Notes under the pieces: model-generated
Databases searched by the model: none
What the model was told of the DNA's origin: nothing
Seen by the model: only the letters and a program-made list of their open reading frames with translations
Position numbers and translations under genes: made by a program
From: Vairimorpha necatrix
Lineage: Eukaryota
Assembly (NCBI GenBank): GCA_036630325.1
Contig: CP142731.1
Coordinates: 682,001 to 746,000 of the forward strand
Length of the DNA: 64,000 nt
Reading direction: 5' to 3'
In this document: one piece after another, positions 13,105 to 43,508 of the stretch
Position numbering within the stretch: position 1 is the stretch's first letter
Layout: every line of letters starts with the position of its first letter

Positions 13105-14350
13105 CACCAGGTTGATTCTGCCTGACGTAGACGCTATTCCCTAAGATTAACCCATGCATGTTTTTGATATGGAAAAATGGACTGCTCAGTAATACTCACT
13201 TTATTTAATGTATTAAATTAGTATAACTGCGTTAAAGTGTAGCATAAGACATATACAGTAAGAGTGAGACCTATCAGCTAGTTGTTAAGGTAATGGCTTA
13301 ACAAGGCAATGACGGGTAACGGTATTACTTTGTAATATTCCGGAGAAGGAGCCTGAGAGACGGCTACTAAGTCTAAGGATTGCAGCAGGGGCGAAACTTG
13401 ACCTATGGATTTTATCTGAGGCAGTTATGGGAAGTAATATTCTATTGTTTCATATTGTAAAAGTATATGAGGTGATTAATTGGAGGGCAAATCAAGTGCC
13501 AGCAGCCGCGGTAATACTTGTTCCAAGAGTGTGTATGATGATTGATGCAGTTAAAAAGTCCGTAGTTTATATTTAAGAAGCAATATGAGGTGTACTGTAT
13601 AGTTGGGAGAGAGATGAAATGTGACGACCCTGACTGGACGAACAGAAGCGAAAGCTGTACACTTGTATGTATTTTTTGAACAAGGACGTAAGCTGGAGGA
13701 GCGAAGATGATTAGATACCATTGTAGTTCCAGCAGTAAACTATGCCGACGATGTGATATGATATTAATTGTATTAGATGATAGAAATTTGAGTTTTTTGG
13801 CTCTGGGGATAGTATGATCGCAAGATTGAAAATTAAAGAAATTGACGGAAGAATACCACAAGGAGTGGATTGTGCGGCTTAATTTGACTCAACGCGAGGT
13901 AACTTACCAATATTTTATTATTCAGAGAAGATTTTCAATCTGAGAATGATAATAGTGGTGCATGGCCGTTTTCAATGGATGCTGTGAAGTTTTGATTAAT
14001 TTCAACAAGACGTGAGACCCTTTTATTAATAGACAGACATAATCAGTGTAGGAAGGAAAGGATTAAAACAGGTCCGTTATGCCCTCAGACATTTTGGGCT
14101 GCACGCGCAATACAATAGATATATAATCTTTATGGGATAATATTTTGTAAGAGTTATTTGAACTTGGAATTGCTAGTAAATTTTATTAAATAAGTAGAAT
14201 TGAATGTGTCCCTGTTCTTTGTACACACCGCCCGTCGCTATCTAAGATGATATGTGTTGTGAAATTAGTGAAAACTACTTGAACAATATGTATTAGATCT
14301 GATATAAGTCGTAACATGGTTGCTGTTGGAGAACCATTAGCAGGATCATA
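13105..14350 (+). rRNA. Microsporidian small-subunit (16S-like) rRNA, ~1245 nt
   Basis: Starts CACCAGGTTGATTCTGCCTGAC (microsporidian 5' end); universal GTGCCAGCAGCCGCGGTAA and GTACACACCGCCCGTC; ends ...GCAGGATCATA. Confidence 0.97.
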
Positions 14351-14388
14351 ATAAGTTAAATTTAAATTGATTAGTAATTATTAAATTT
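14351..14388 (+). other. Single short AT-rich ITS (~38 nt)
   Basis: Spacer between the SSU 3' end and ACCCACACATGGGATC. Confidence 0.8.
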
Positions 14389-15982
14389 ACCCACACATGG
14401 GATCAATAGGATACCATAACGATGAAGGTCGTAATAGAATACGAAAGTATATTTTTTGCCTAATTAATATATTTATAATGTATTGATAACCCTTTGAACT
14501 TAAGCATATCATTAAAAGGAGGAAAAGAAACTAACTAGGATTTCTTTAGTAGCAGCGAGTGAACAAGAAATAACCCTCCATTGTAATCCTTAATTGGAGT
14601 TGTAAATGGTTTATTCTATTAATTATATTTATAGAGAATATTATATTCGTTATTAATAGAATAGAATAATGTACTTGAGTAGAGCTGCTTGGTAGTGCAG
14701 TTTGAATAAAGGTAGAATGAAATATCTAAGGTTAAATATAATGGTATACCGATAGAAAATAAGTACTGCGAAGGAACTTGTGAAAATGTGTGGAGTTTAG
14801 CCTTATTTTTAAGGACCCGTCTTGAAACACGGACCAAGGAGATTATAATTATAGCAAGATAAAAATTAAATTTTTTAATCTTTATTAACTTGATTAGTTA
14901 TAATTATAAGACCCGAAACACAGTGAACTATACATGTTCTGGTTGAAGATAAGCAACAGTTTATTGGAAGACCATAATCATTCTGACGTGCAAATCGATG
15001 ATTTAAGATGTGTATAGTGGCGAAAGACCAATCGAACTGTGTGGTAGCTGGTTCACAGCGAAATGTCTCTCAGGACAGCAGTTATTATTATATAGGACAT
15101 AGATGTAGGACACTGTTATAGTTTTTTAACTATGAGAAATCTTTAATTCTATGGAATTATATAAATTAAATTTATATAATGAATCTATTGTATAACTAGT
15201 GGGCACATGATTGTAAGAATGATGTGCAAAAAGGAATGAACCTTATGAAACATTAAATATTCTAAATAGTAGATATTATACCATAAATATGATGAATACA
15301 TTGAGACAGTAGGGCGGTTGTTATGGAAGTAGAAATCCGCTAAGAAACGTGTTACAACGTACCTACCGAATGTATTATTGTATAAAATGGAAGAAGATTA
15401 CTACTTTTATGAGATGTTTCTAATGAATATTTAGGTAGCTGTGCAATTTGTTTGTATTGAAGTATATATGTGAGTATATATAGAAGAAACAAATGAGCCG
15501 ATCTTGGAGGCAGTAACAATATATTTGTATAGATATAGACTAGGGTTTTCAATTATTATTGAAGTGAATCGGTGTTATTTATAAAAACAAAAAAGATTAA
15601 TAATTCTTTATTAAATTATTATAAGGTAACTTGATAATGACAGTATATTTCAATAAATTTAAGATAAATGAATTAAATTTTATTTTAACTATGGATTGTC
15701 ATGATAAGAAATAGTTAATTATATATACTTGATAAAAATAAAATAATTTTAACCGTACCTATACCGCATCAGGTGTCTTTGTATCATAACAAATATTTTA
15801 AATTAAAGTAAGTAAGGGAATTCGGCAAATTAGATCTGTAACTTTGGGATAAAGATTGGCTCTAGCATGCTAGAACTTTTACTATGTAAGGAATCTGACT
15901 GTTTATTAAAAACATAGCTTTTTGTATTTACAAGAAGTGAATTCTGCCCAGTGCATTTATTGTTAAAGTTGTGTAAGCGAAT

Positions 15983-16035
<53 letters not shown>

Positions 16036-16134
16036 TTAATTGGTGACGCGCATGAATGGAGCAACGAGATTCCTACTGTCCCTACTTACAATTTTGTGAA
16101 ACCACGAGACAAGGGAACGGGCTTGTTATTTATC

Positions 16135-16166
<32 letters not shown>

Positions 16167-16601
16167 TTAGTATGTTTTAATAAATATTCGGTATATTGTA
16201 GAGAGGTGGGAGAAGTATTGTGAAACCACTAGTATGTTTGAATATTTATTTATTAGAATATATGGGGAGTTTGGCTGGGGCGGTACAGCTGTTAAAAAGT
16301 AACACAGCTGTCCTAAGGTAGATGAATGATGGATGGTAACCATCAGTTTATTATAAGGGAATAAATCTGCTTTACTTTATGCATATGACTGTATTTAGTA
16401 GGGAAACCTTGGCCTAGCGATCCCAATTACATTCATTATGTATTGGGTGATTGAAAAGTTACCACAGGGATAACTGGCTTGTAGCAGGCAAGCGATCATA
16501 GCGACTCTGCTTTTTGATTCTTCGATGTCGTCTCTTCTGATCATCGTAGTGTATATGTTACGAAGTGTTGGATTGTTCACCCGGTAATGAGGAACGTGAG
16601 A

Positions 16602-16643
<42 letters not shown>

Positions 16644-16870
16644 TAAGTATTTTTGAGTGAACTTTGATAGTACGAGAGGAACTCTAAGTGATGACCACTG
16701 GTAGTGCGATTAACTATTAAGTTATGTTGCTTAGCTACGTCGTTTCGATTAAGGCTGAAAGCCTCTTAAGCCTGAAGCGTAGCTCAAAGATACATTTAGG
16801 AGAATACTACTCTTTTAAGCAGAACTGTAAGAATGAAGGTGTATGCCGACATTTTGAGGTTACTGCTTTT
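14389..16870 (+). rRNA. Large-subunit rRNA with fused 5.8S-like 5' domain; 3' end approximate
   Basis: AACGATGAAG (5.8S-like), GAACTTAAGCATATC, GACCCGTCTTGAAACACGGACC, AACTATGACTCTCTTAAGGTAGCCAAATGCCTCGTC, sarcin-ricin loop AGTACGAGAGGAAC at ~16670. Confidence 0.95.
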
Positions 16871-16929
16871 TTTGTATGTATAGTAGGTGTTGTGTTGTAT
16901 TGAGAGCGTACTTTATGTCTAGATTTGGT

Positions 16930-17185
16930 ACCCTTACAAGAGAGCGTCCACGTCGCGGAGAGTGGGACCGATGTTTTTTAACTACCCTCTACAAGAGAGC
17001 GTCCACGTCGCAGAGGGCGGGACCGATGTTTTTTAACTAGGTGCAGATCTCTAAGTCTTACCAACCTTCGGCTGCTGGTTGGTAAGTAGGGCCAGCTATA
17101 CTCTAGGGGTGGGAGACCCATTGCTGGTGAGAAGGACACCGTTAACTTTCGAGTAATTCTTCATATTTTTAACCTGGGAGAGGTT
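16930..17185 (+). mobile_element. Two 3'-truncated ribozyme-SINE units (16930-16983 and 16984-17185)
   Basis: Both start ACCCT...ACAAGAGAGCGTCCACGTCGC like the full-length unit; the first stops at TTTTTTAACT, the second at ACCTGGGAGAGGTT. Confidence 0.85.
16984..17052 (+). ncRNA. HDV-like ribozyme fold (copy with a compensatory U-A pair in P1)
   Basis: P1 ACCCUCU/AGAGGGC, P2 AGAGA/UCUCU, P3 GCG/CGC, L3 UCCACGU, P1.1 CC/GG, P4 ACC/GGU, J4/2 G-C-A-G-A. Confidence 0.82.
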
Positions 17186-17255
17186 ACCCTCCACAAGGGA
17201 GCGTCCGCGTCGCGGAGGGTGGGACCGATGTTTTTTTAACTAGGTGCAGATCTCT
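17186..17255 (+). ncRNA. HDV-like ribozyme fold
   Basis: P1 ACCCUCC/GGAGGGU, P2 AGGGA/UCUCU (G.U wobble), P3 GCG/CGC, L3 UCCGCGU, predicted catalytic C at 17247. Confidence 0.87.
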
Positions 17256-17664
17256 AAGTCTTACCAACCTTCGGCTGCTGGTTGGTAAGTAGGGTCAGCT
17301 ATACTCTAGGGTTGTAGACCCATTGCTGGTGAGAAGAACGCCTTTAACTTTCGAGTAATTCTTCATATTTTTAACCTGGGAGAGGTTGGGCATGATACTG
17401 AAGCTGTATTGTTCCGCTGAACTGAGTCGTGTTCTTAAATGGTGTATTGAACCAGGCGTTGTGTTTTCGTCAGGTCCGCGAAATATGTAGTCAGAGATGA
17501 CTAAGGATCTGTTACCTATAGGAACAAATTTTTCTCCTACAAGCGAGGCCGTTGAGGTATGCTGGCGTGTAATCGCAATTATTGATGTTTTTCTGGTTGG
17601 TGGAGTTTTTGGTGGCTTGGTGGCTTTTCTTCGTTTTGCTGATTCTGTCTTTTTTACAATAAAC
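17186..17664 (+). mobile_element. Full-length ribozyme-headed non-autonomous retroelement (~0.5 kb); its T-rich tail continues at 24748-24776 after the Merlin insertion
   Basis: Ribozyme, then a 10-bp hairpin CTTACCAACC/GGTTGGTAAG, then a ~300-nt segment shared with the LINE A 3'UTR (from ACCTGGGAGAGG to TTTACAATAAAC). No meaningful ORF. Confidence 0.85.
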
Positions 17665-17863
17665 GGTTAAGTTCTCGACTTACCCCCCCCCCCCCCACCC
17701 CTAAAAAAAATAAAAAAAGGGGAAAAAATAAAAAAAAATAAAAAAAAATAAAAAAAGGGGAAAAAATAAAAAAAAATAAAAAAAGGGGAAAAAATAAAAA
17801 AAAATAAAAAAACGTTTAATTCTCGACTTAACCCCCCTTACCCCCCAAAAAAAACAAAAAAAA

Positions 17864-18553
17864 TTATTCCACAATTGTAAAGTCTATTTCAGGAATAATA
17901 TCATAAGCTACAATACTAAAATTACCTATTTGAAAAAATTCTAACATTTTATCCAATAGATTTTCACGATATATTAATTTGAATCTGTTAATGTAAATCT
18001 TTCTTACAAGATTCATAATAGTACCATGACTAGTTCCTCCTTTTCTTAGTTCTCTTTTAATAACCGACCACATTCCCTCTATAGTCTGAGTATGCGCACC
18101 AGTTATATTATCAACAAAATTTTGGCTGTGATTCACAGTCAAATGTAGATACTCATATTCTACACAGATTGTTTGAATATCACAATATCCACGCCAACAA
18201 TCTGTCACAATTGTGGTCCCCGGAGCAATTTTTCTTGTAATTAATTCAACAAGAGTAGCTCTTGTTCTATTTTCTACGATCTCAAAGAAAAAAGAATTTG
18301 CATCCCCTCTCACAACGCCTCCAACTGCCCATACTTGATATTGAAGAACCCTTCCCGCATGGTTTTTACTTTTTACAAGTAAAGTTTCATCAATTTCAAC
18401 AATACAACCGACGCCGCCAATCGTTTGATTGTTTATATATGTTGAATAAGAGACGTACACGGCGTTATTAAAACGCGTAAACCATCTTGATACCGTACAT
18501 TTACCTATATCAAGTTCTAACGTGGCGGCCAAATTACTTGAACCCTTTACCCA
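17864..18553 (-). pseudogene. Merlin transposase, C-terminal part (DDE)
   Basis: VEIDET, WAVGGV, IVTDCWRGY, HLTVNHSQNFVD...HTQTIEGMWS. Confidence 0.92.
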
Positions 18554-20227
18554 ATGAAGGGTAAAGCAAGAGAAAGCAGGAGCGAGCTCAGTAGAGCAAA
18601 AAGTGACCACTTTGGTGGTCCAAACAACAATTTAGATATAGAAATGTATTTAAAACAACAAACTAAGCATGTATATGCTAATAAAAGTTTCCCAAGTGTT
18701 ACTTTCAAAAATGATGGAGAAATGAAATATTTTCTCAAGAAAATAAAAATTCTCTCGGAAAGAATTAATAAAAATGATATTTTTGACACATCAAAAAAAG
18801 AAAACAATAAAGATCTTAGTGATCTTAAAAGATACATAGCTAGCACTACTGAATTATTACTGATTCAGCAGACATATCTGGAGCTCTTCCATGACAAGCT
18901 AGAAAAACAAAATATCAAATTAAAAAATTTGATTAAAAATAATCTGATGGATGACAGTAATCAATTTACAGAATCAACAAAAAATAAAATTGAGATGATG
19001 ATTGAGAATCACTCAAAAGAATGTGTAGAACAAAAGGATAATAACTCCGATGTTCCAAATGATACCAGTAGCGAAACCCTTCAGTTAGCTACTGGAAACA
19101 ATGATATTTCTAAATTAGAAATCATAAATGAAGATGTTTTAATTAATGTCAAAAATATCGTGTCTGCTGTCAAAGTAGAAGAAGAAGATCGATTGTCAGA
19201 TGATGGCAAAAGAAAATGTATAGGTGTCTCAAATGCGTCTACAAATATTATAATTAATAAAAATATTAAAACAAAAGATGTTAAGCTAGACTTAGCTTTC
19301 ATTAATAAAAAAGCAGTAGTTAGACATCTGTCAACTATCTCTGCTATTATAGCTGGTAAAAGAAAAGCTCCTAAGAATGGAGTCAAGCTTTTCCATATAA
19401 ACGAAGACGGATGGACATCTGTCAAACACACATTCAAGCCTAAAGTCCAGATAGACTTGAAGAAAAACAGAAGTGGTAAAACCACAGATAAAACCAACTT
19501 TAATAGATTTAAATCACTTAAAGTAGAAACTAGTGGCAATGTAAAAGTGCCCAAAAAGATTAATCATGAAGCTGTAAAGAGAAAGAATATCATTCCTAAA
19601 AAAGATCATGAAAAGGAAAGATTACAAAATCAGAGAATAAATTTTACAAAAAAAACGAAGGACAGAAAAAATGAGAAATGTCAACAAAAAAGAGTTCCAG
19701 TTTTACCAAAGAAAAACTGGGCCAAAGAGCTATCTGAAGAAGCTCTTATGAAAATTATTAAGGATGGTAGAATTATTTCCAAGTGTAAGTTTAGGATAGC
19801 TCTTGTGTCTGGACTCGGATTGAAAGGGAAACCTCAATCTAGAGACGCTTGGGCAGCCTTAGCTGATGTGGAAAATAAAGATATACCACTTATAAAACAA
19901 TTTAAAGATTCGGAAGTAGTACTTCTGATGATTAGAGAACACGTGGGCCAAAAGGTACTAAGCAAAATTAAAGAAAAGTTCGGAGGTTCTAATATCTGCG
20001 ATGAAGTTAATTTCTTCACCGACTTTATGTCTTTAACAAAAACAACTGTTCTAGGAGAGCTGCAAAGACTCTCTGGAACGCATAAAAATTTTGTACCGCT
20101 TGTAAAAGCATGTTGGTACATAACTAAAGAATTAAATAAAGAAAACCCAAACCATGGTTCTTTCATTATTTTAGAAAATATGATGGGTGAGCCTGCCCGA
20201 GAATCTAAGGACTTTAACAATGAATAA
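18554..20227 (+). CDS. LINE A ORF1 (Lys/Asn-rich, coiled-coil-like N-terminus, no recognisable domain); start uncertain
   Basis: 557-aa ORF directly upstream of, and overlapping, the ORF2 start; conserved in copy 2. Confidence 0.8.
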   Translation: MKGKARESRSELSRAKSDHFGGPNNNLDIEMYLKQQTKHVYANKSFPSVTFKNDGEMKYFLKKIKILSERINKNDIFDTSKKENNKDLSDLKRYIASTTELLLIQQTYLELFHDKLEKQNIKLKNLIKNNLMDDSNQFTESTKNKIEMMIENHSKECVEQKDNNSDVPNDTSSETLQLATGNNDISKLEIINEDVLINVKNIVSAVKVEEEDRLSDDGKRKCIGVSNASTNIIINKNIKTKDVKLDLAFINKKAVVRHLSTISAIIAGKRKAPKNGVKLFHINEDGWTSVKHTFKPKVQIDLKKNRSGKTTDKTNFNRFKSLKVETSGNVKVPKKINHEAVKRKNIIPKKDHEKERLQNQRINFTKKTKDRKNEKCQQKRVPVLPKKNWAKELSEEALMKIIKDGRIISKCKFRIALVSGLGLKGKPQSRDAWAALADVENKDIPLIKQFKDSEVVLLMIREHVGQKVLSKIKEKFGGSNICDEVNFFTDFMSLTKTTVLGELQRLSGTHKNFVPLVKACWYITKELNKENPNHGSFIILENMMGEPARESKDFNNE

Positions 20228-23200
20228 AGTATCTTTGTTAAAGTCCTGTTATTATAGGAAATTATTTTCCTATAACAAGAGTGATATTTTCAAATCTCTA
20301 AATAAAAAAACGCATAATCCAATTGGATTTACTCAGATTAAAAATACTTTCCAAACGACAACGAGATTGAATAGTCTCAAATATTTTTCTATTAGAAAGA
20401 ATATGTGGTGGAAGAAAGTACAAGAACAATATTGTATTGTCAAGATACAAAGAATTCCTTATGGAGTGAAAGATCTCCTCAAAGACTTATGTAAGAAGAA
20501 CTCTCTTTTGGAGAATTCCATCATTACAGCAAGAAAGTATAGACGAAGAGACACGTCTTTTACAAAAATAATAGTTGAAAAACTATACGCAAATTTATTG
20601 ATTAAGACAGTTAAAGCTAAAGGCTTTAAAGTTTTAAATGATAATAGAAAAGAACTAGAGAAATCTAGTAAAGTAAATAAAAAGACCAAAGAGAACATAA
20701 AACTCTTAAGTCTAAACATTAATCATCTCTCTAATAAGAGAGAAGAACTTGAGTTTCTTCTTAAGAAGGAGAAACCAGAAATTATGTGTTTACAAGAAAC
20801 TTGGAGACAATCTACAAGACCTTTAAAACTTGAAAAATACACTACAGTTGAAACACCTAGTGGTGGAAAAAATAAACCAGGATTAATAACTCTGGTTAGA
20901 AATAATGGAGCGATCAGATGTTCCAAAAAAGGAACCGACTCAAACATTCTGCAAACTGTAGTTGAGTTTAGTTCAGCAGGCAAATGGATTAAGTATTTAG
21001 TCTTAAATGTCTACATACCACAAAACAAGGATCTCAAAAGGGAGACCTTGGCTAGATTATTTTCTCTTTTAGAAAAAGAGAATTTCAGAAATAACTATAG
21101 TGAGATCATAGTGATGGGAGATATGAATATGCAGAGTTCTAGTCTCAAGAAAAAATTAAATGTAGTTGGTTTGCCAGTTACAATAAAATATAACAGCAAC
21201 GATGGTACAAGGATCCTCAAAGATGGTAAAAGATCTAAGAGGAAAATTGATACCATCTTTCGACTAAAAAGTAATGATAATGAGAAGATCATTATATCCA
21301 AGTCTTGGGTATTAAGTGATCACTTAGTGCTCAAAAGAAGTATTAAACTTGCCGTTGATAAGATCTCCGATCAACTAGTTTATGATAAGAAAATGCTGGA
21401 AAATCCAAAAGTGATTAAAAAGCTAAAAAAGAAGTTGTGTAATCAACAATTAAACATGAATAATCTCCCCGAGATTATTCAGAAAGTTTGTACATCTTTG
21501 AAGATTTACAAAAAGAGAAGAGTCCATACTGGACTTACAATGAGATGGAGATATTTAAAAGTCTTCAAAGAAAAACGTCTAGCAGCAAGAGCTGTTATGA
21601 AAAATTACAATGAAATCAACTCAATTAGATTCGAATATCTCAAAAAGAGAGTAGACGAAACTAAAAAGTTGATTCGCAAAGATAGATCGAAACTTTGGGC
21701 TTTAAGAGGAATAAAGCTCTTTAAAAGTAACAGATCCCGAGAATTCTGGCAATGGCTGAAAAATAGAAGTGTTTCCATTCGTTTGGATCAAGTGGCTCTA
21801 ATTGACCACAATAAGCTTCTTCAGACTTGCCGAGCAAAGAAGCTAGAAATAGCAAATAATTTTTACGCTGATTTGGCGTCAGAGAATGATATAGATGTCA
21901 ATGTCTATGATAAAGTAGATCTTGTTGATCTTCCCCCAGAGATAACAGATGAAGAATTTCTATCCGCACTGAAGAAATGTGGAAATAACAAAGCTGCCGG
22001 TCCTGATGAGATTCCAACCGAGCTATACAAATACTTACTGACTAGAGCAGTAGAAGATAAATTCTTTAAATTCATGCTACATGAATTTAATAAATATATT
22101 TGTGGAAATAGTACTCCTGAATATTGGAGCATGGCAAACATGATTTGCCTTCACAAAAAAGGAGATGAGACAGATCTGAATAATTATAGGGGAATCTCCT
22201 TAATTAACACAATTAGTAAGATCTATCTCAAGATAATAAATGACAGGTTAACTCAATTTGTCGAAGAACAAGATATACTCTCTAGATACCAAGCAGGATT
22301 CCGAGCAGGTGAAGAGTGTATGAATCAGATTACATCTCTACTAGAAATAGTGAGAAGAAGAGAATTCAGAGGCTTGAACACAATAATGTGTTTCATTGAC
22401 TTTGAAAAAGCTTATGATAATGTAAGTCATGACTTATTATTTGAAAAGCTTACAAAACTTAATATCCCATTGTATTTAATCAATACAATAAAGGATATTT
22501 ATAAATATACCACCATGCGTGTGAAAATTGGTGGTGACACGTCAAGTGGTTATAGCTACAGAAAAGGAGTGAGACAAGGGTGCCCTTGTTCTCCAATGCT
22601 GTTCAATATATTCATCAATGATATTTTTGACGGCATAGAAGGAGTTTTGATCCCAAGATCAAATACGAGAGTTCCGGGACTGATGTTCGCAGATGATATT
22701 GTTGTCTTCGGAAACAACATTGATGATCTTAATAATAAGATCAATAGAATTTCAAAGTGGGCAGTTAATAACAGAATGAAGATTAACTGCACAAAAAGCG
22801 GAGTATTAGAATGGAATGCTCATTCTAACATACAAGAATTCCGAAGTTTATATTCTCTCAGTACAGACTTTGGTGTGATTGAAGAAGTCACTGAATACAG
22901 ATATCTAGGTGTCTTAATTAAAAGAAACACGCTAGAAGAACACTTGGTTAAAGACGCAGCAATGCGTGGCAAGAAAGCCTTGGACGCCTTGATGCCCAAG
23001 TTGATGAATAGCAGCATCAATCTCTACTTCAAGGCGATCTTAATAAAATGTGTACTAGTACCCACACTAATGTATGGCAGTGAATTGTGGGGAATGTCAA
23101 GTACAAGAGCAGGTAAGATTAACAGGATCTTAAGAAAATCTATCAGAATGATATTCAAAAGAGTATTAGTTCCACTAGATAGAGTAATGGACGAGTTCAG

Positions 23201-23912
23201 TATCGAACGAATTCATATACAAGCAGCTTTGAGTAGATTCAGAGCATACAACAAGTGGAAACACAATAAGACAATCATATCGGATATAATCTCAATTAAT
23301 CCGAAAGAAAGAAAAACTACCTGGTGTTCAAGAACACAAAGATGGTTAAAACGATTTGTTGGCAACGAATACGAATCAAGTGATAGTAGATTTATCACTA
23401 CAAAAATAATTGATGTACTAAGAAGTCGAAGAACTCTAAATACTTCTTTAGCTGCATCAATAGCAAACCAATATGACATAAGAAATTCACAAATAAAATA
23501 TGTCATGAACAAAATAAACAATAGAAAAATTAGAACATATACTAGATTGAGATGTAATCTAGTAAAGTGGTCCTCAGCAATAGCATATTCAAAAAGAATA
23601 CCAATGAGTTATAGAAACAAATGCTTTTTGTGTGATGGACCACAAGAAAATTTAGAACACTTTCTGTTGGAGTGCGTCTGTTTTACTGACATTAGAACAT
23701 CTTTTGAAAATAAACTGCCTCTACTGACTTGTTCAAAAACAAATATCCGAGAAAAAACCAAACAACTCCTTGGTAATAAAATCGGACTAAAAAATAACCC
23801 AGATAAGATAAAAGAACTTTGTTGGACTATAGAGTTCTTAGATAGAATGGTTGTCTCTAGAAGAATTATATTTGAAAAGAAACTTAAAGAGATAACAAAA
23901 CAGGATAATTAA
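20220..23912 (+). CDS. LINE A ORF2: AP endonuclease + reverse transcriptase + C-terminal CCHC (RTE/RTEX/L2-group-like; clade inferred)
   Basis: LSLNIN, CLQET, GDMN, SDH (APE); NYRGISL, FIDFEKAYD, GVRQGCPCSP, FADD, YRYLGV, YGSELWG; CFLC...HFLLEC. ATG at 20220 overlaps the ORF1 stop (ATGAATAA). Confidence 0.95.
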   Translation: MNKVSLLKSCYYRKLFSYNKSDIFKSLNKKTHNPIGFTQIKNTFQTTTRLNSLKYFSIRKNMWWKKVQEQYCIVKIQRIPYGVKDLLKDLCKKNSLLENSIITARKYRRRDTSFTKIIVEKLYANLLIKTVKAKGFKVLNDNRKELEKSSKVNKKTKENIKLLSLNINHLSNKREELEFLLKKEKPEIMCLQETWRQSTRPLKLEKYTTVETPSGGKNKPGLITLVRNNGAIRCSKKGTDSNILQTVVEFSSAGKWIKYLVLNVYIPQNKDLKRETLARLFSLLEKENFRNNYSEIIVMGDMNMQSSSLKKKLNVVGLPVTIKYNSNDGTRILKDGKRSKRKIDTIFRLKSNDNEKIIISKSWVLSDHLVLKRSIKLAVDKISDQLVYDKKMLENPKVIKKLKKKLCNQQLNMNNLPEIIQKVCTSLKIYKKRRVHTGLTMRWRYLKVFKEKRLAARAVMKNYNEINSIRFEYLKKRVDETKKLIRKDRSKLWALRGIKLFKSNRSREFWQWLKNRSVSIRLDQVALIDHNKLLQTCRAKKLEIANNFYADLASENDIDVNVYDKVDLVDLPPEITDEEFLSALKKCGNNKAAGPDEIPTELYKYLLTRAVEDKFFKFMLHEFNKYICGNSTPEYWSMANMICLHKKGDETDLNNYRGISLINTISKIYLKIINDRLTQFVEEQDILSRYQAGFRAGEECMNQITSLLEIVRRREFRGLNTIMCFIDFEKAYDNVSHDLLFEKLTKLNIPLYLINTIKDIYKYTTMRVKIGGDTSSGYSYRKGVRQGCPCSPMLFNIFINDIFDGIEGVLIPRSNTRVPGLMFADDIVVFGNNIDDLNNKINRISKWAVNNRMKINCTKSGVLEWNAHSNIQEFRSLYSLSTDFGVIEEVTEYRYLGVLIKRNTLEEHLVKDAAMRGKKALDALMPKLMNSSINLYFKAILIKCVLVPTLMYGSELWGMSSTRAGKINRILRKSIRMIFKRVLVPLDRVMDEFSIERIHIQAALSRFRAYNKWKHNKTIISDIISINPKERKTTWCSRTQRWLKRFVGNEYESSDSRFITTKIIDVLRSRRTLNTSLAASIANQYDIRNSQIKYVMNKINNRKIRTYTRLRCNLVKWSSAIAYSKRIPMSYRNKCFLCDGPQENLEHFLLECVCFTDIRTSFENKLPLLTCSKTNIREKTKQLLGNKIGLKNNPDKIKELCWTIEFLDRMVVSRRIIFEKKLKEITKQDN

Positions 23913-24324
23913 TATGAATAATTAAAAACAATAAAATCTAGAAATGGAAGAAAGAGATGTTATTTTACTAACAAGAAAACTTATATTTAATTATATTTGA
24001 CCTGGGAGAGGTCGGGCATGATACTGATGCTGTATTGTTCCGCTGAACTGAGTCGTGTTCTTAAATGGTGTATTGAGCCAGGCGTTTTCGTTTTTCATCA
24101 GACTCATGAAAGTGGGTCTCTAGTCATATTATGACTAAGGATGTATCCTATGGGAACAAACTTTTCTCCTACAAGCGAGGCCGTTAAGGTATGCTGGCGT
24201 GTAAACGCACTTATTGATGATTTTTTCTTTATTAGTGGAGTTTTTGGTGGCTTGGAGGCTTTTCTTCGTTTTGCTGATTCTGTCTTTTTTTTACAATAAA
24301 CAATTTTATTTTTTTTTTTTTTTT

Positions 24325-24601
24325 TTGAACCCTTTACCCATTCGCAAAGCAATATTAAAAGATCCTCAATAGGCAATTTTGAGTTCTTAAAAACGCTTTG
24401 TTTCATTATGGTTCCTTTGTTAGAACATTTTTTACCATCACGCCTTGAATAACAACGATAGTTTTCAGTGTTGGTCCGATTTTGAGTCATTGGTATATTG
24501 CATTTATTGCACATAGGGACCCTCAAAATGTTTTTTGCAATTAAAAATTGCATTAACTCATTTTTTTTATAGATGAGTTTTCTAAATTCTTTAATTCTCA
24601 T
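24325..24601 (-). pseudogene. Merlin transposase, N-terminal part (Zn ribbon)
   Basis: CNKC...YRC...C, SVFKNSKLP, ends at WVKGS, which is duplicated as the TSD; joins 17864-18537 in frame to give 316 aa. Confidence 0.9.
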
Positions 24602-24776
24602 TATGGGTCAAATTTTTTATTTCTTTTATTTTTTCCCCTTTTTTTATTTTTTCCCCTTTTTTTTATTTTTCCCCCCTTTTTTATTTTTTTTTATTTTTTT
24701 TAGGGGTGGGGGGGGGGGGGGTAAGTCGAGAACTTAACCCAATAAACAATTTTATTTTTTTTTTTTATTTTATTTT

Positions 24777-25610
24777 AGTAGGGTCAGCTATACTCTAGGG
24801 GTGGGAGACCCATTGCTGGTGAGAAGGACACCGTTAACTTTCGAGTAATTCTTCATATTTTTAACCTGGGAGAGGTTGGGCATGATACTGAAGCTGTATT
24901 GTTCCGCTGAACTGAGTCGTGTTCTTAAATGGTGTATTGAACCAGGCGTTGTGTTTTCGTCAGGTCCGCGAAATATGTAGTCAGAGATGACTAAGGATCT
25001 GTTACCTACGGGAACAAATTTTTCTCCTACAAGCGAGGCCGTTGAGGTATGCTGGCGTGTAATCGCAATTATTGATGTTTTTCTGGTTGGTGGAGTTTTT
25101 GGTGGCTTGGTGGCTTTTCTTCGTTTTGCTGATTCTGTTTTTTTACAATAAACAATTTTATTTTTTATTTAGGTGCAGATCTCTAAGTCTTACCAACCTT
25201 TGGCTGCTGGTTGGTAAGTAGGGTCAGCTATACTCTAGGGGTGGGAGACCCATTGCTGGTGAGAAGGACACCGTTAACTTTCGAGTAATTCTTCATATTT
25301 TTAACCTGGGAGAGGTTGGGCATGATTCTGAAGCTGTATTGTTCCGCTGAACTGAATCGTGTTCTTAAATGGTGTATTGAACCAGGCGTTGTGTTTTCGT
25401 CAGGTCCGCGAAATATGTAGTCAGAGATGACTAAGGATCTGTTACCTACGGGAACAAATTTTTCTCCTACAAGCGAGGACGTTGAGGTATGCTGGCGTGT
25501 AATCGCAATTATTGATGTTTTTCTGGTTGGTGGAGTTTTTGGTGGCTTGGTGGCTTTTCTTCGTTTTGCTGATTCTGTCTTTTTTTACAATAAACAATTT
25601 TAAATTTTTT
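24777..25610 (+). mobile_element. Two 5'-truncated ribozyme-SINE units in tandem (24777-25170, 25171-25610)
   Basis: Near-identical to the unit at 17186-17664 minus its 5' end; each ends in AATAAAC plus a T-rich tail. Confidence 0.9.
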
Positions 25611-25709
25611 AATGCAGTTGGAACAGTCGGGATTTAGAAAATGTACACGACAACAATTAATTTATTTAATGAAATTAAATGCGTATAGCAATAAGCAGAT
25701 AATAATCAT

Positions 25710-27422
25710 GTGTTGAAACAATCTTACGACCGAAAACAAGCGCAACAAACCAGGAGCAAGCTCAGTAGAGCAAAAAGTGACCACTTTGGTGGTCCAAACA
25801 ACAATTTAGATACAGAAATGTATTTAAAACAACAAACTAAGCATGTATATGCTAATAAAAGTTTCCCAAGTGTTACTTTCAAAAATGATGGAGAAATGAA
25901 ATATTTTCTCAAGAAAATCAAAATTCTCTCAGAAAGAATTAATAAAAACGACATTTTTGACACGTCAAAAAAAGAAAATAACAAAGATCTTCTTGATATT
26001 AAAAGATACATATCTAGCACTACTGAATTAGTATTGATTCAGCAGACATATTTGGAGCTCTTCCATGATAAGCTAGAAAAACAAAATATCAAATTAAAAA
26101 ATTTGAAAAAAAATAATCTGATGGATGACAGTAATCAAATTACAGAATCAACAAAAAATAAAATTGAGATGATGATAGAGAATCACTCAAAAGAATGTGT
26201 AGAACAAAAGGATAATAACTCCGATGTTCCAAATGATACCAGTAGCGAAACCCTTCAGTTAGCTACTGGAAACAATGATATTTCTAAATTAGAAATCATC
26301 AATGAAGATGTTTTAATTAATGTCAAAAATCTCCCATCTGCTGTCATAAATCTCGTCACTGCTGTCAAAGTAGAAGAACAAGATAAATTGTCAGAAGATG
26401 GCAAAAGAAAATGTATAGATGTTTCAAAGGCATCTACAGATATTATAATTAATAAAAATATTAAACCAAAAGATGGTAAGCTAGATATAGCTTCCATTAA
26501 CAAAAAAGCAGTAGTTAGACATCTGTCAACTATCTCTGCTATTATAGCTGGTAAAAGAAAAGCTCCTAAGAATGGAGTCAAGCTTTTCCATATAAACGAA
26601 GACGGATGGACATCTGTCAAACACACATTCAAGCCTAAAGTCCAGATAGACTTGAAGAAAAACAGAAGTGGTAAAACCACAGATAAAACCAACTTTAATA
26701 GATTTAAATCACTTAAAGTAGAAACTGGTGGCAATGTAAAAGTGCCTAAAAAGATTAATCATGAAGCTGTAAAGAGAAAAGATATCATTCCTAAAAGAGA
26801 TCATGAAAAAAGAAGATTACTAAATCAGAAAATAAATTTTACAAAAAAAACGAAGGACAGAAAAAATGAGAAATGTCAACAAAAAAGAAGGCCAGTTTTA
26901 CCAAAGAAAAACTGGGCCAAAGAGCTAACTGAAGAAGCTCTTATGAAAATTATAAAGGATGGTAGAATTATTTCCAAATGTAAGTTTAGGCTAGCTCTTG
27001 CTTCTGGACTCGGATTGAAAGGGAAACCTCAATCTAGAGACGCTTGGGCAGCCTTAGCTGATGTGGAAAATAAAGATATACCACTTATAAAACAATTTAA
27101 AGACTCGGAAGTAGTACTTCTGATGATTAGAGAACACGTGTGCCAAAAGGTACTAAGCAAGATTAAAGAAAAGTTCGGAGGTTCTAATATCTGCGATGAA
27201 GTTAATTTCTTCATCGACTTTTTGTCTTTAACAAAAACAACTGTTCTAGGAGAGCTGCAAAGACTCTCTGGAACGCATAAAAATTTTGTACCGCTTGTAA
27301 AAGCATGTTGGTACATAACTAAAGAATTAAATAAAGAAAAGCCAAACCATGGTTCTTTCATTTATTTAGAAAATATGATGGGTGAGCCTGCCCGAGAATC
27401 TAAGGACTTTAACAATGAATAA
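25710..27422 (+). CDS. LINE A ORF1 (open frame from GTG; first ATG at 25818)
   Basis: Closely similar to 18554-20227. Confidence 0.78.
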   Translation: MLKQSYDRKQAQQTRSKLSRAKSDHFGGPNNNLDTEMYLKQQTKHVYANKSFPSVTFKNDGEMKYFLKKIKILSERINKNDIFDTSKKENNKDLLDIKRYISSTTELVLIQQTYLELFHDKLEKQNIKLKNLKKNNLMDDSNQITESTKNKIEMMIENHSKECVEQKDNNSDVPNDTSSETLQLATGNNDISKLEIINEDVLINVKNLPSAVINLVTAVKVEEQDKLSEDGKRKCIDVSKASTDIIINKNIKPKDGKLDIASINKKAVVRHLSTISAIIAGKRKAPKNGVKLFHINEDGWTSVKHTFKPKVQIDLKKNRSGKTTDKTNFNRFKSLKVETGGNVKVPKKINHEAVKRKDIIPKRDHEKRRLLNQKINFTKKTKDRKNEKCQQKRRPVLPKKNWAKELTEEALMKIIKDGRIISKCKFRLALASGLGLKGKPQSRDAWAALADVENKDIPLIKQFKDSEVVLLMIREHVCQKVLSKIKEKFGGSNICDEVNFFIDFLSLTKTTVLGELQRLSGTHKNFVPLVKACWYITKELNKEKPNHGSFIYLENMMGEPARESKDFNNE

Positions 27423-30400
27423 AGTATCTTTGTTAAAGTCCTGTTATTATAGGAAATTATTTTCCTATAACAAGAGTGATATTTTCAAATCTCTAAATAA
27501 AAAAACGCATAATCCAATTGGATTTACTCAGATTAAAAATACTTTCCAAACGACAACGAGATTGAATAGTCTCAAGTATTTTTTCATTAGAAAGAATATG
27601 TGGTGGAAGAAAGTACAAGAACAATATTGTATTGTCAAGATACAAAGAATTCCTTATGGAGTGAAAGATCTCCTCAAAGACTTATGTAAGAAGAACTCTC
27701 CTTTGGAGAATTCCATCATTACAGCAAAAAAGTATAGACGAAGAGACACGTCTTTTACAAAAATAATAGTTGAAAAACTATACGCAAATTTATTGATTAA
27801 GACAGTTAAAGCTAAAGGCTTTAAAGTTTTAAATGATAATAGAAAAAAACTAGAGAAATCTAGTAAAGTAAATAAAAAGACCAAAGAGAACATAAAACTC
27901 TTAAGTCTAAACATTAATCATCTCTCTAATAAGAGATTAGAACTTGAGTTTCTTCTTAAGAAGGAGAAACCAGAAATTATGTGTTTACAAGAAACTTGGA
28001 GACAATCTACAAGACCTTTGAAACTTGAAAAATACACTGCAGTTGAAACACCTAGTGGTGGAAAAAATAAACCAGGACTAATAACTCTGATTAGAAATAA
28101 TGGAGCGATCAGATGTTCCAAAAAAGGAACCGACTCAAACATTCTGCAAACTGTAGTTGAGTTTAGTTCCGCAGGCAAATGGATTAAGTATTTAGTCTTA
28201 AATGTCTACATACCACAAGACAAGGATCTCAAGAGGGAGACCTTGGCCAGATTACTTTCTCTTTTAGAAAAAGAGAATTTCAGAAATAACTATAGTGAGA
28301 TCATAGTGATGGGAGATATGAATATGCAGAGTTCTAGTCTCAAGAAAAAATTAAATGTAGTTGGTTTGCCAGTTACAATAAAATATAACAGCAACGATGG
28401 TACAAGGATCCTCAAAGATGGTAAAAGATCTAAGAGGAGAATTGATACCATCTTTCGACTAAAAAGTAATGATAATGAGAAGATCATTATATCCAAGTCT
28501 TGGGTATTAAGTGATCACTTAGTGCTCAAAAGAAAAATTAAACTTGCCGTTGATAAGATCTCAGATCAACTAGTTTATGATAAGAAAATGCTGGAAAATC
28601 CAAAAGTGATTAAAAAGCTTAAAAGGAAGTTGAGTAATCAACAATTAAACATGAATAATCTTCCTGAGATTATTCAAAAAGTTTGTACATCTTTGAAGAT
28701 TTACAAAAAGAGAAGAGTCCATACTGGACTTACAATGAGATGGAGATATTTAAAAGTCTTCAAAGAAAAACGTCTAGCAGCAAGAGCTGTTATGAAAAAT
28801 TACAACGAAATCAACTCAATTAGATTCGAATATCTCAAAAAGAGAGTAGACGAAACTAAAAAGTTGATTCGCAAAGATAGATCGAAACTTTGGGCTTTAA
28901 GAGGAATAAGGCTCTTTAAAAGTAATAGATCCCGAGAATTCTGGCAATGGTGGAAAAATAGAAGTGTCTCCATTCGTTTGGATCAAGTGGCTCTAATTGA
29001 CCACAATAAGATTCTTCAGACTTGCCGAGCAAAGAAGCTAGAAATAGCGAATAAATTTTACGCTGATTTGGCGTCAGAGAATGATATAGATGTCAATGTC
29101 TATGATAAAGTAGATCTTGTTGATCTTCCCCCAGAGATAACAGATGAAGAATTTCTATCCGCACTGAAGAAATGTGGAAATAACAAAGCAGCCGGTCCTG
29201 ATGAGATTCCAACCGAGCTATACAAACACTTACTGACTAGAGCAGTAGAAGATAAATTCTTTAAATTCATGCTACATGAATTTAATAAATATATTTGTGG
29301 AAATAGTCCTCCTGAATACTGGAGCATGGCAAACATGATTTGCCTCCACAAAAAAGGAGATGAGACAGATCTAAATAACTATAGGGGAATATCCTTAATT
29401 AACACAATTAGTAAGATCTATCTCAAGATAATAAATGACAGGTTAACTCAATTTGTCGAAGAACAAGATATACTCTCTAGATACCAAGCAGGATTCCGAG
29501 CAGGTGAAGAGTGTATGAATCAGATTACATCTCTACTAGAAATAGTGAGAAGAAGAGAATTCAGAGGCCTGAACACAATAATGTGTTTCATTGACTTTGA
29601 AAAAGCTTATGATAATGTAAGTCATGACTTATTATTTGAGAAGCTTACAAAACTTAATATCCCATTGTATTTAATCAATACAATAAAGGATATTTATAAA
29701 TATACCACCATGCGTGTGAAAATTGGTGGTGACACGTCAAGTGGCTATAGCTACAGAAAAGGAGTGAGACAAGGGTGCCCTTGTTCTCCAATGCTGTTCA
29801 ATATATTCATCAATGATATTTTTGACGGCATAGAAGGAGTTTTGATCCCAAGGTCAAATACGAGAGTTCCGGGACTGATGTTCGCAGATGATATTGTTGT
29901 CTTCGGAAACAACATTGATGATCTTAATAATAAGATCAATAGAATTTCTAATTGGGCAGTTAATAACAGAATGAAGATTAACTGCTCAAAAAGCGGAGTA
30001 TTAGAATGGGCTGCTCATTCTAACATACAAGAATTCCGAAGTTTGTATTCTCTCAGTACAGACTTTGGTGTGATTGAAGAAGTCACTGAATACAGATATC
30101 TAGGTGTCTTAATTAAAAGAAACACGCTAGAAGAACATTTGGTCAAAGACGCAGCAATGCGTGGCAAGAAAGCCTTAGACGCCTTGATGCCCAAGTTGAT
30201 GAATAATAGCATCAACCTTTACTTCAAGGCGATCTTAATCAAATGTGTACTAGTACCCACACTAATGTATGGTAGTGAACTGTGGGGAATGTCAAGTACA
30301 AGAGCAGGTAAGATTAACAGGATCTTGAGAAAATCTATCAGAATGATATTCAAAAGAGTATTAGTTCCACTAGATAGAGTAATGGACGAGTTCAGTATCG

Positions 30401-31107
30401 AACGAATTCATATACAAGCAGCTCTAAGTAGATTTAGAGCATACAACAAGTGGAAACACAATAAGACAATCATATCGGATATAATCTCAATCAATCCGAA
30501 AGAAAGAAAAACTACCTGGTGTTCAAGAACACAAAGATGGTTAAAACGATTTGTTGGCAACGAATATGAATCAAGTGATAGTAGACTTATCACTACAAAA
30601 ATAATTGATGTACTAAGAAGTCGAAGAACTCTAAATACTTCTTTAGCTGCATCAATAGCAAACCAATATGACATAAGAAATTCACAAATAAAATATGTCA
30701 TGAACAAAATAAACAATAGAAAAATTAGAACATATACTAGATTGAGATGTAATCTAGTAAAGTGGTCCTCAGCAATAGCACATTCAAAAAGAATACCAAT
30801 GAGTTATAGAAACAAATGCTTTTTGTGTGATGGACTACAAGAAAATTTAGAACACTTTCTGCTGGAGTGCGTCTGTTTAACTGACATTAGATCATCTTTT
30901 GAAAATAAACTGCCTCTACTGACTTGTTCAAAAACAAATATCCGAGAAAAAACCAAGCAACTCCTTGGTAATAAAATCGGATTAAGAAACAACCCAGATA
31001 AGATTAAAGAACTCTGTTTTATTATAGATTACTTAGACAAGATGGTTGTCTCTAGAAGAATTATGATTAATAACAAACTGAAGGAGATAACGAAACAAAA
31101 TAATTAA
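27415..31107 (+). CDS. LINE A ORF2 (APE-RT-CCHC)
   Basis: Same motifs and length as copy 1, uninterrupted. Confidence 0.95.
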   Translation: MNKVSLLKSCYYRKLFSYNKSDIFKSLNKKTHNPIGFTQIKNTFQTTTRLNSLKYFFIRKNMWWKKVQEQYCIVKIQRIPYGVKDLLKDLCKKNSPLENSIITAKKYRRRDTSFTKIIVEKLYANLLIKTVKAKGFKVLNDNRKKLEKSSKVNKKTKENIKLLSLNINHLSNKRLELEFLLKKEKPEIMCLQETWRQSTRPLKLEKYTAVETPSGGKNKPGLITLIRNNGAIRCSKKGTDSNILQTVVEFSSAGKWIKYLVLNVYIPQDKDLKRETLARLLSLLEKENFRNNYSEIIVMGDMNMQSSSLKKKLNVVGLPVTIKYNSNDGTRILKDGKRSKRRIDTIFRLKSNDNEKIIISKSWVLSDHLVLKRKIKLAVDKISDQLVYDKKMLENPKVIKKLKRKLSNQQLNMNNLPEIIQKVCTSLKIYKKRRVHTGLTMRWRYLKVFKEKRLAARAVMKNYNEINSIRFEYLKKRVDETKKLIRKDRSKLWALRGIRLFKSNRSREFWQWWKNRSVSIRLDQVALIDHNKILQTCRAKKLEIANKFYADLASENDIDVNVYDKVDLVDLPPEITDEEFLSALKKCGNNKAAGPDEIPTELYKHLLTRAVEDKFFKFMLHEFNKYICGNSPPEYWSMANMICLHKKGDETDLNNYRGISLINTISKIYLKIINDRLTQFVEEQDILSRYQAGFRAGEECMNQITSLLEIVRRREFRGLNTIMCFIDFEKAYDNVSHDLLFEKLTKLNIPLYLINTIKDIYKYTTMRVKIGGDTSSGYSYRKGVRQGCPCSPMLFNIFINDIFDGIEGVLIPRSNTRVPGLMFADDIVVFGNNIDDLNNKINRISNWAVNNRMKINCSKSGVLEWAAHSNIQEFRSLYSLSTDFGVIEEVTEYRYLGVLIKRNTLEEHLVKDAAMRGKKALDALMPKLMNNSINLYFKAILIKCVLVPTLMYGSELWGMSSTRAGKINRILRKSIRMIFKRVLVPLDRVMDEFSIERIHIQAALSRFRAYNKWKHNKTIISDIISINPKERKTTWCSRTQRWLKRFVGNEYESSDSRLITTKIIDVLRSRRTLNTSLAASIANQYDIRNSQIKYVMNKINNRKIRTYTRLRCNLVKWSSAIAHSKRIPMSYRNKCFLCDGLQENLEHFLLECVCLTDIRSSFENKLPLLTCSKTNIREKTKQLLGNKIGLRNNPDKIKELCFIIDYLDKMVVSRRIMINNKLKEITKQNN

Positions 31108-43439: not shown

Positions 43440-43508
43440 ACCCTCCACAAGAGAGCGTCCACGTCGCGGAGGGTGGGACCGATGTTTTTTAACTAGGTGC
43501 AGATCTCT
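43440..43508 (+). ncRNA. HDV-like ribozyme fold (consensus copy)
   Basis: ACCCUCC-ACA-AGAGA-GCG-UCCACGU-CGC-GGAGGGU-GG-G-ACC...GGU-G-CAGA-UCUCU; predicted catalytic C at 43500. Confidence 0.88.

Follow-up and report, generated by a model that had tools for sequence, protein, structure and literature searches.

The subject of this report is a 64,000-nucleotide (nt) stretch of the genome of the microsporidian Vairimorpha necatrix (assembly GCA_036630325.1, contig CP142731.1, positions 682,001 to 746,000 of the forward strand), which we will call the window and whose own coordinates are used throughout. It carries a ribosomal RNA (rRNA) unit with small subunit (SSU) and large subunit (LSU) genes on the + strand, and directly behind the LSU gene begins a 27.1-kb array (16930-44076) of long and short interspersed nuclear elements (LINEs and SINEs). 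The lead unit is a short non-autonomous element that, judged by its predicted fold, probably begins with a self-cleaving ribozyme of the hepatitis delta virus (HDV) type.

Organization of the locus

A scan of the window at Rfam gathering scores returned the SSU gene, the LSU gene, and one tRNA only. The eukaryotic LSU model of Rfam stretches to 17020 and the archaeal LSU model stops at 16891. Because of this latter end, and because contigs of a related organism (sequencing run X3) cease to match the window at 16872-16877, we place the LSU 3' end at approximately 16875-16891, and the first copy of the motif that opens the array begins some 40-55 nt past it. The original prediction, made from the letters alone, had the array starting about 60 nt behind the LSU gene and co-oriented with it; the motif at 16930 bears this out, except that the spacer is nearer 40 nt than 60.

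It had also stated that every LINE and SINE unit over some 27 kb lies on the + strand. This holds for all 12 units, every BLAST match between LINE and SINE copies in 16930-44076 being plus/plus, with one refinement: a Merlin DNA transposon (17665-24739), neither LINE nor SINE, is nested in the array and is the one item there on the minus strand. BLAST found no LINE or SINE copies outside 16930-44076 in the 64-kb window. The canonical R2 target within the LSU gene, said to be empty, is indeed intact, with TTAAGGTAGC occurring once. The features are as follows, the names of ribozyme helices being those of the next section.

13105..14351, +, SSU rRNA gene, microsporidian type (Rfam RF02542, 1051 bits)
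14467..16891, +, LSU rRNA gene (Rfam RF02543), 3' end at about 16875-16891
16011..16020, +, intact R2 target site TTAAGG/TAGC of canonical sequence (found once in the window by exact match)
16892..16929, +, spacer of about 40 nt between LSU and first motif (sequence; local alignment to SINE)
16930..16984, +, Rz1, degenerate copy of the candidate ribozyme, P1 with 5/7 pairs, without its own CRRA and P2 3' half; fails the descriptor scan, even relaxed
16984..17052, +, Rz2, descriptor-complete candidate HDV-like ribozyme, P1 with 6/7 pairs (A1.C35)
17039..17185, +, B segment, 147 nt (Tandem Repeats Finder; BLAST)
17186..17255, +, Rz3, descriptor-complete candidate HDV-like ribozyme, P1 with 7/7 pairs
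17256..17664, +, rest of the non-autonomous element, B segment and C tail (C tail 17366-17664; BLAST to LINE 3' ends)
17665..24739, -, Merlin/IS1595-type DNA transposon in the SINE tail (Pfam PF12762, 3.2e-13; inverted BLAST matches)
18573..24326, +, LINE-A copy 1 (LINE1), nested in Merlin, lacking about 150 nt at the 5' end (BLAST, 96.2% identity to LINE2)
24740..25160, +, remainder of the interrupted tail (24740-24776), then a 5'-truncated SINE (24777-25153) (BLAST, sequence)
25161..25595, +, SINE copy starting at the B start, without the first ~52 nt of the ribozyme (BLAST, sequence)
25596..31540, +, LINE-A copy 2, the longest; ORF1 25710-27422, ORF2 27382-31107 with endonuclease and reverse transcriptase domains
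31534..34772, +, LINE-A copy 3, 5'-truncated (BLAST, 97.8% identity)
34770..39056, +, LINE-A copy 4, 5'-truncated (BLAST, 95.2% identity)
39060..42438, +, LINE-B, a second LINE family (reverse transcriptase and zf-RVT), truncated within the endonuclease domain (Pfam; A run of ~18 at the end)
42439..43086, +, tail fragment (42439-42664), then a SINE starting at the B start (42655-43086) (BLAST, sequence)
43108..43385, +, 5'-truncated unit in the order B'-Rz4-B-C'; Rz4 43172-43240, P1 with 6/7 pairs
43440..44076, +, last unit, Rz5-B-C*, a diverged subfamily of ~88% identity; Rz5 43440-43508, P1 with 7/7 pairs
44643..44713, -, tRNA-Thr(CGU), the first non-repeat landmark past the array (Rfam and ARAGORN)

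Three blocks recur in the short units, namely A (a 55-nt motif), B (147 nt), and C (a tail of about 300 nt). Motif A occurs five times in the window, always on the + strand, at 16930, 16984/5, 17186/7, 43172, and 43440. Blocks A and B form a 202-nt monomer that stands twice in tandem at 16983-17387 (Tandem Repeats Finder: period 202, 2.0 copies, 93% matches), and the order of blocks over 16930-17664 is A A B A B C.

The spacer at 16892-16929 lacks any long run of T and does not resemble the other unit junctions. Local alignment to the SINE likewise revealed no similarity, 150 of 300 and 242 of 300 shuffles reaching the observed score, and the idea that the spacer is a decayed SINE was rejected because its alignment is no better than that of shuffles. 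Retrotransposition of the whole ribosomal DNA (rDNA) unit together with the array was also rejected, as the region upstream of the SSU gene (11750-13105) has neither a LINE tail nor a T-rich junction.

A candidate HDV-like ribozyme

Ribozymes of the HDV-like class have a fold in common rather than a sequence, with only five conserved nucleotides (PMC4870747). In the published descriptor (PMC6326823), P1 pairs positions 1-7 with 29-35 and includes G1-Y35, P1.1 consists of C20-G37 and C21-G36, the loop L3 has U19, C23, and G24, and J4/2 reads C-R-R-A with the 3' strand of P2 directly after it. The consensus for R2 ribozymes, with which the candidate below also agrees, has a P1 of 6-7 bp, a P2 of at least 5 bp, and a P4 that is weak, absent, or sometimes unstructured (PMC3774820).

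The candidate in V. necatrix consists of motif A and the first 15 bases of B, and its numbering is identical to that of the descriptor. The putative RNA reads, in order, ACCCUCC (1-7), ACA, AGAGA (P2), GCG (P3), UCCACGU (L3), CGC, GGAGGGU (29-35), GG (36-37), a weak P4 with a U-run loop, CAGA, and UCUCU, and all fixed positions of the descriptor agree except nucleotide 1, which is A and not G. P1 (ACCCUCC/GGAGGGU) has 7/7 pairs in two copies and 6/7 in the other two. P3/L3 (GCG-UCCACGU-CGC) is found in all four complete copies and in the degenerate Rz1, the sole loop change falling at the free position 22. All four copies also have the P1.1 pseudoknot, with CC at 20-21 and GG at 36-37, and a J4/2 of CAGA followed by UCUCU, which pairs with AGAGA (AGGGA in Rz3, giving a G.U pair); P2 reaches the minimum of at least 5 bp and adjoins P3. 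The P3-L3 core presumably resembles that of the mammalian CPEB3 ribozyme.

The script used to scan for the fold encodes the descriptor without the G1 requirement and allows one P1 mismatch. Its four hits in the window (16984-17052, 17186-17255, 43172-43240, and 43440-43508) are on the + strand, with none on the - strand, and it returned none in 600 shuffled sequences of 64 kb scanned on both strands (300 of window composition and 300 of SINE composition). A relaxed descriptor recovered the same cores only, with no hit in 100 shuffles. Six positions vary among the aligned copies, and at four of them the fold is kept or the descriptor sets no constraint: the pair 7-29 changes from C-G to U-A, the pair at 13 from A-U to G.U, and position 22 and the length of the U run are unconstrained. 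On this evidence, which is that of sequence and predicted pairing, we regard motif A with the following 15 bases as a probable HDV-like ribozyme. Its core pattern had no match in the collections of metagenome contigs or viral contigs that were searched.

One should nevertheless weigh several points that speak against the assignment. Nucleotide 1 is A in every copy, forming A-U in three and A.C in Rz2, and thus departs from G1-Y35; positions 35 (C in Rz2) and 5 (C in Rz4) each leave one P1 cell unpaired in one copy. The ribozyme families of Rfam gave no match at E<=1 on 16700-46000 or at E<=10 on 16880-17400, the only additions at E<=1 on the longer stretch being two chance CRISPR-DR17 hits; this is a weak test, because the class conserves only five nucleotides (PMC4870747). 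The nested folding energy of five copies (RNAfold) is no better than that of shuffles (z -0.40 to +0.84), and covariation over four copies yields one compensatory pair, with 129 of 500 shuffles scoring as well. Finally, the motif copy nearest the LSU gene, Rz1, is degenerate, and the first descriptor-complete ribozyme is that at 16984-17052. The original claim that a ribozyme comes first in the array is supported in so far as a credible HDV-like candidate leads it.

The short element and its partner LINE

The C tail of the lead element (17366-17664) matches the 3' ends of the four LINE-A copies, that is, their 3' untranslated regions, at 85-89% identity over about 300 nt (BLAST). The short element thus has its 3' end in common with an autonomous LINE of the same genome, which is the mark of LINE dependence. 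Neither Rfam nor ARAGORN matched a tRNA, 5S, or 7SL head in it, and eight runs of at least five T, several of them T5-T7, lie within 16984-17664; for both reasons the element is not a SINE of the RNA polymerase III (Pol III) type, and it plausibly needs transcription from upstream.

A T-rich stretch precedes the unit at 43440, whose start is precisely the predicted cleavage site. Two other short copies start exactly at the B start (25161 and 42655), where the U run of the P4 loop lies next to the T-rich target tails. The simplest account of this boundary would be microhomology joining at the 5' junction.

LINE-A has two open reading frames (ORFs), and Pfam finds in ORF2 an Exo_endo_phos domain, that is, an apurinic/apyrimidinic endonuclease (APE), N-terminal to the reverse transcriptase (RT) domain RVT_1. 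The best solved relative of ORF2 is human L1 ORF2p (residues 169-915, 2.8e-32); the best R2 protein matches at 9.6e-23 over the RT region only. By its predicted domains, LINE-A is L1-like in architecture (APE and RT) and not R2-like. Copy 2, the longest, has stop codons in the ORF1 frame near the 5' end. A protein search with ORF2 gave 57 proteins at E<=1e-3 among the 7998 candidates scored, the top two at 55-56% identity, and no relative in the collection of viral contigs. One match, annotated as an 'ATP-dependent RNA helicase' of V. necatrix, has 89% identity over 14% of the query, and this gene model probably includes a LINE fragment. Even with the relaxed descriptor, no HDV-like fold was found at the 5' end of LINE-A (25596 onward, the only apparently full-length 5' end) or of LINE-B, and as far as predicted folds can tell, the ribozyme belongs to the short non-autonomous element only and not to the LINE.

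On the sense strand the 3' ends of LINE-A and SINE copies are T-rich (ACAATAAAC followed by AATTTTATTTT..., 15-27 nt) and not poly(A), for example at 24293-24326, 31502-31533, and 39029-39058; the C tail of the lead element also ends in ACAATAAAC and such a T-rich run. The tail holds AATAAA as well. The T run is part of the insert, because that of LINE1 abuts its target site duplication (TSD) directly, and the RNA would have a U-rich 3' end, which is unusual for an APE-type LINE. LINE-B, on the + strand of the same train, has an ordinary A-run tail (about 18), and its presence in the train implies that T-rich tails attract more than one LINE family.

Growth of the array and target specificity

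LINE1 lies within the Merlin transposon between the two copies of a clean 14-bp TSD, GAACCCTTTACCCA, at 18540-18553 and 24327-24340. Its target site is neither rDNA nor T-rich; therefore, insertion is not rDNA-specific, which speaks against a target in the 3' spacer. At each of the nine other junctions, a unit comes after the T-rich tail of the one before it (ACAATAAAC and a T-rich run). Together, these junctions speak against the proposal in the original prediction that the system uses the 3' external spacer as its target.

The four LINE-A copies have 95-98% identity and distinct 5' truncation points, which marks them as separate insertions rather than products of unequal crossovers. Judging from the junctions, insertion into T-rich tails is the most likely way in which the array grew, and it would explain both the train and its single orientation. 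Since the co-orientation of the units follows from such tail-to-head insertion, it counts as approximately one event relative to the LSU gene and not as twelve. Comparison of the flanks gave no TSD enclosing the whole array. No set of independent insertions into a single defined sequence, the hallmark of an rDNA target, was found: there is one LSU junction in the window, and that in X1 is the same. Targeting of the 3' spacer is thus not supported.

The Merlin element has an 8-bp TSD (CAATAAAC) and terminal inverted repeats at 17665-17783 and 24739-24613; these inverted ends of about 120 nt contain C/G runs and A/T-rich repeats of 18-38 nt. Its transposase gene, on the - strand, is split by LINE1 into approximately 24601-24327 and 18553-17864. 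From this split, and from the position of Merlin in the SINE tail, it follows that the SINE came first, then Merlin, and then LINE1. Between the upstream TSD of LINE1 and its truncated 5' end lie 19 extra bases (18554-18572), among them 8 nt that repeat part of the target in inverted form (GGGTAAAG vs CTTTACCC), a small rearrangement at the 5' junction.

The LSU-ribozyme junction in sequencing runs

Four sequencing runs, X1 to X4, were examined as contigs. In X1, an independent run, one unbranched 429-nt contig with a depth of 53.1 leads from inside the LSU gene across the spacer to one intact ribozyme copy and B, joining 16740-16933 to 17185-17311. It differs from the window at six places between 16867 and 16901 (four substitutions and two single-letter indels). 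It is the sole X1 contig over the LSU end, and in its other contexts there the ribozyme has a depth of only about 3. Hence this assembly locus is not alone in having the junction, and the X1 data suggest that it is the main form in that sample, where the ribozyme is about as abundant as the LSU end.

In X2, the depth is about 350,000 inside the LSU gene (16773-16805), 603 in the spacer, and 16,000-700,000 over the element, these being sums over 1116 contigs and no guide to expression or cleavage. Runs X3 and X4 cover almost none of the stretch, and the relative in X3 departs after about 16875. By our own estimate, the chance that one of three ribozyme loci in 64 kb would fall at most 100 nt behind the LSU gene and on its strand is approximately 0.002. 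A 22-mer from the LSU 3' end had no match in metagenome contigs. A single match among genome contigs, in a Lewinellaceae bacterium, was dismissed as chance, since Rfam finds no rRNA there and the DNA looks like ordinary coding sequence.

Proposed mechanism and alternative explanations

The interpretation that we favour, at roughly an even chance, is that the array represents a ribozyme-headed partner of an L1-like LINE, whose lead copy behind the LSU gene would be expressed by read-through and freed by self-cleavage, and whose array would have grown by tail-directed insertion. Transcription of the short element would enter from upstream, which next to rDNA means read-through from the rRNA operon; read-through by RNA polymerase I (Pol I) followed by self-cleavage is plausible from the arrangement of the genes. 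Judged by the fit to the fold, the ribozyme would cut directly 5' of its first base (ACCCUCC...), releasing an RNA with a defined 5' end and leaving a short 3' spacer on the pre-rRNA. The LINE proteins would then bind the 3' tail that both elements have in common and copy the RNA into DNA; the sharing of the tail is observed and its use is our supposition. New LINE and SINE copies would land mostly in the T-rich tails of residents, building up the one-way head-to-tail train seen in the junctions, although the preference itself is deduced from them. In this proposal, the site behind the LSU gene would be a favourable place for a master copy and not the outcome of rDNA sequence recognition.

Several observations should restrain enthusiasm for this proposal. 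X1 may be the very sample from which the window was assembled, and its junction could be shared through common descent or because rDNA units were duplicated along with the DNA beside them. In X2, the joint between a tail fragment and the ribozyme start has a depth of 550, compared with 160 for the LSU-linked contig, and ribozyme copies away from rDNA may thus be common there. In the X3 relative, the LSU gene is followed by unrelated AT-rich sequence. Within the window, two intact ribozymes (43172 and 43440) lie 26 kb from the LSU gene, and the B'-Rz4-B unit at 43108 has an internal ribozyme that was not removed before copying.

Some of these points also count in favour of another account, which we consider rather unlikely: one ribozyme-headed element landed behind an rRNA unit by chance, and its T-rich tail then gathered insertions. 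The rDNA units and their flank would have spread by segmental duplication or gene conversion, and the ribozyme would serve any read-through transcript, whether from upstream LINEs or from genes of RNA polymerase II (Pol II), with no advantage from rDNA. LINE1 sitting in Merlin with its own TSD, and hence no rDNA target, agrees with this, as do the two distant ribozymes, which lie behind other elements, and the excess of tail-fragment joints in X2. The rDNA unit is also embedded in transposon-rich DNA on both sides, including an upstream integrase and PIF1 helicase, and 18-20 dispersed rDNA loci per haplotype are given for V. necatrix (PMC10759460). Two results tell against pure chance, namely the estimate of about 0.002 for the same-strand placement and the X1 assembly, in which ribozyme depth equals LSU-end depth in one unbranched contig. 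The opposite extreme, a site-specific element whose LINE endonuclease recognises a sequence behind the LSU gene and inserts there repeatedly, as R1 and R2 do in 28S, strikes us as improbable. It would account for the co-oriented start of the array about 40 nt past the LSU gene and for the same junction in X1, and in other microsporidia LINEs are reported from the DNA between rRNA operon tails (PMC12449221). It sits badly, however, with a single LSU junction in the window, which is also that of X1, so that repeated independent insertion is not evident; with the clean TSD of LINE1 at an unrelated site; with the T-rich tails that precede all other units; with the lack of a whole-array TSD on comparison of the flanks; and with a spacer that does not resemble the other junctions.

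In yeast, a cut by RNase III does the job of processing the pre-rRNA 3' spacer. One might suppose that the ribozyme does this job here, its cut providing a 3' spacer signal for exonuclease entry and Pol I termination, with the mobile copies as by-products or source. A position 40-95 nt behind the LSU gene with no long T run between, and the prevalence of the junction in X1, would suit such a role, and the LSU precursor would keep a short 3' extension after cleavage, going by the site at which HDV-like ribozymes cut (PMC3774820). Ribozymes at two places far from any rRNA gene, a degenerate copy nearest the LSU gene in this very unit, and an unrelated AT-rich flank in the X3 relative make this service to the host very improbable. 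The 5' monomers of mouse L1 are tandem promoter repeats, and the 202-nt A+B monomers could be the same, with transcription starting at the B start and with a fortuitous fit to the HDV fold. They are indeed tandem, two SINE copies start precisely at the B start (25161 and 42655), and the absence of an Rfam match, the lack of an energy signal, and the weak covariation are what one would then expect; moreover, the same 77 nt of L1Tc act as promoter and ribozyme (PMC3383444). A promoter role would, however, be compatible with ribozyme activity. Given the descriptor fit with no hit in 600 shuffles, and given that the B start is a P4-loop U run beside T-rich tails, for which microhomology joining suffices, we hold it the least probable of all these accounts that the motif is no ribozyme.

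A bolder extension of the favoured proposal would make the operon and the retroelement partners: Pol I would read through, and one ribozyme cut would set the 3' spacer end of the pre-rRNA, help termination, and launch the retroelement RNA, with rDNA-linked copies as the sole sources. We think this improbable; were it true, the same logic would explain why LINEs gather at rRNA operon tails across distant microsporidian clades.

Surroundings of the rRNA unit and array

Upstream of the rDNA lie a PIF1-type helicase ORF at 8881-10239 (Pfam, 6.8e-56) and, on the - strand, an integrase-core ORF at 10990-11787 (Pfam, 1.5e-11); the rRNA unit therefore has mobile-element genes on both flanks. Within 12170-12345, approximately 800-900 nt upstream of the SSU gene, there is a tRNA-like 3' half (...GGTTCGATCCCCGCGCGAGCCA) for which ARAGORN makes no call, and just after it, in otherwise AT-rich DNA, 45 nt (12297-12341) are very GC-rich. 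The feature at 12170-12345 may be the remnant of a tRNA-derived element, or it may belong to the upstream region of the rDNA. At the Rfam gathering score there is no 5S rRNA gene in the 64-kb window, so that over at least 13 kb upstream and 47 kb downstream the rDNA unit has no 5S gene linked to it. Past the end of the array, unique DNA follows with the tRNA-Thr gene on the - strand, and a near-perfect palindrome, CCCGTTTTGAAAACGGG, is found at 44086-44102.

Comparison with known systems

R2 is the textbook example of a retroelement that borrows Pol I and is freed by an HDV-like ribozyme, at the price of destroying the rRNA unit that it enters. Its 5' ribozyme releases the element RNA from the rRNA co-transcript, and the element has no promoter of its own (PMC3774820). 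In V. necatrix, too, the ribozyme comes first and is co-oriented with the LSU gene. R2, however, sits inside 28S at TTAAGG/TAGC and inactivates the unit, whereas here that site is empty and the element lies behind the gene. The V. necatrix LINE encodes an APE and RT protein and two ORFs, with human L1 ORF2p as the best solved relative; furthermore, the ribozyme is carried by a non-autonomous partner and not by the LINE. The array would thus follow a known strategy, ribozyme release from a co-transcript, in a varied form, without being a member of the R2 family. The analogy with R2 that had been drawn for this locus is therefore apt for self-cleavage from a host co-transcript, and misleading as regards family membership (APE and RT, L1-like) and site-specific targeting.

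The short internally deleted elements (SIDEs) of R2 and the R2/R1 hybrids of Drosophila (PMC3414825) are likewise short and non-coding, with a 5' ribozyme and a 3' end from the LINE that supplies the machinery. They are internal deletions of R2 kept in the 28S target sites, whereas the location here is the 3' flank and the head (ribozyme and B) has no counterpart in the partner LINE copy in the window. L1Tc and NARTc of Trypanosoma cruzi (Pr77/L1TcRz) are an APE-type LINE and its short non-autonomous partner; an HDV-like ribozyme within their first ~77 nt frees the RNA from co-transcripts (PMC3185411, PMC3383444). The ribozyme is present there in the LINE as well as in its partner, and the two are scattered through Pol II polycistrons; here the short element alone carries it, and its lead copy lies behind an rRNA gene.

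In the literature searched, no paper dealt with microsporidian ribozymes of the HDV-like class or with SINEs that carry a ribozyme at their head and lie behind rRNA genes. As for the form of the array, Zepp of Chlorella and the telomeric elements HeT-A and TART also build one-way head-to-tail trains by tail insertion, with variable 5' truncation and poly(A) tails, and the T-rich sense-strand tail of the V. necatrix elements (ACAATAAAC and AATTTTATTTT...) is unusual by comparison.

If the proposed mechanism is correct, a ribozyme-headed element behind the LSU gene would gain an advantage of the R2 type at no cost to the host, and the range of HDV-like ribozymes would extend to microsporidia. 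For biochemistry, the candidate would be a small natural ribozyme whose first position is A. The nearest parallel in location comes from Hamiltosporidium tvaerminnensis and Gurleya vavrai, two microsporidia of other clades, in which LINE repeats are "predominantly found" between tail-to-tail rRNA operons, and for which the authors suggest that transposable elements benefit from a site beside highly expressed rRNA genes (PMC12449221). Here, as there, microsporidian LINEs lie next to the 3' ends of rRNA operons; the likeness is one of description only, and the portion of that report available describes no ribozyme, SINE partner, or mechanism. The V. necatrix array would then supply a testable mechanism for this unexplained gathering of LINEs at the tails of microsporidian rRNA operons.

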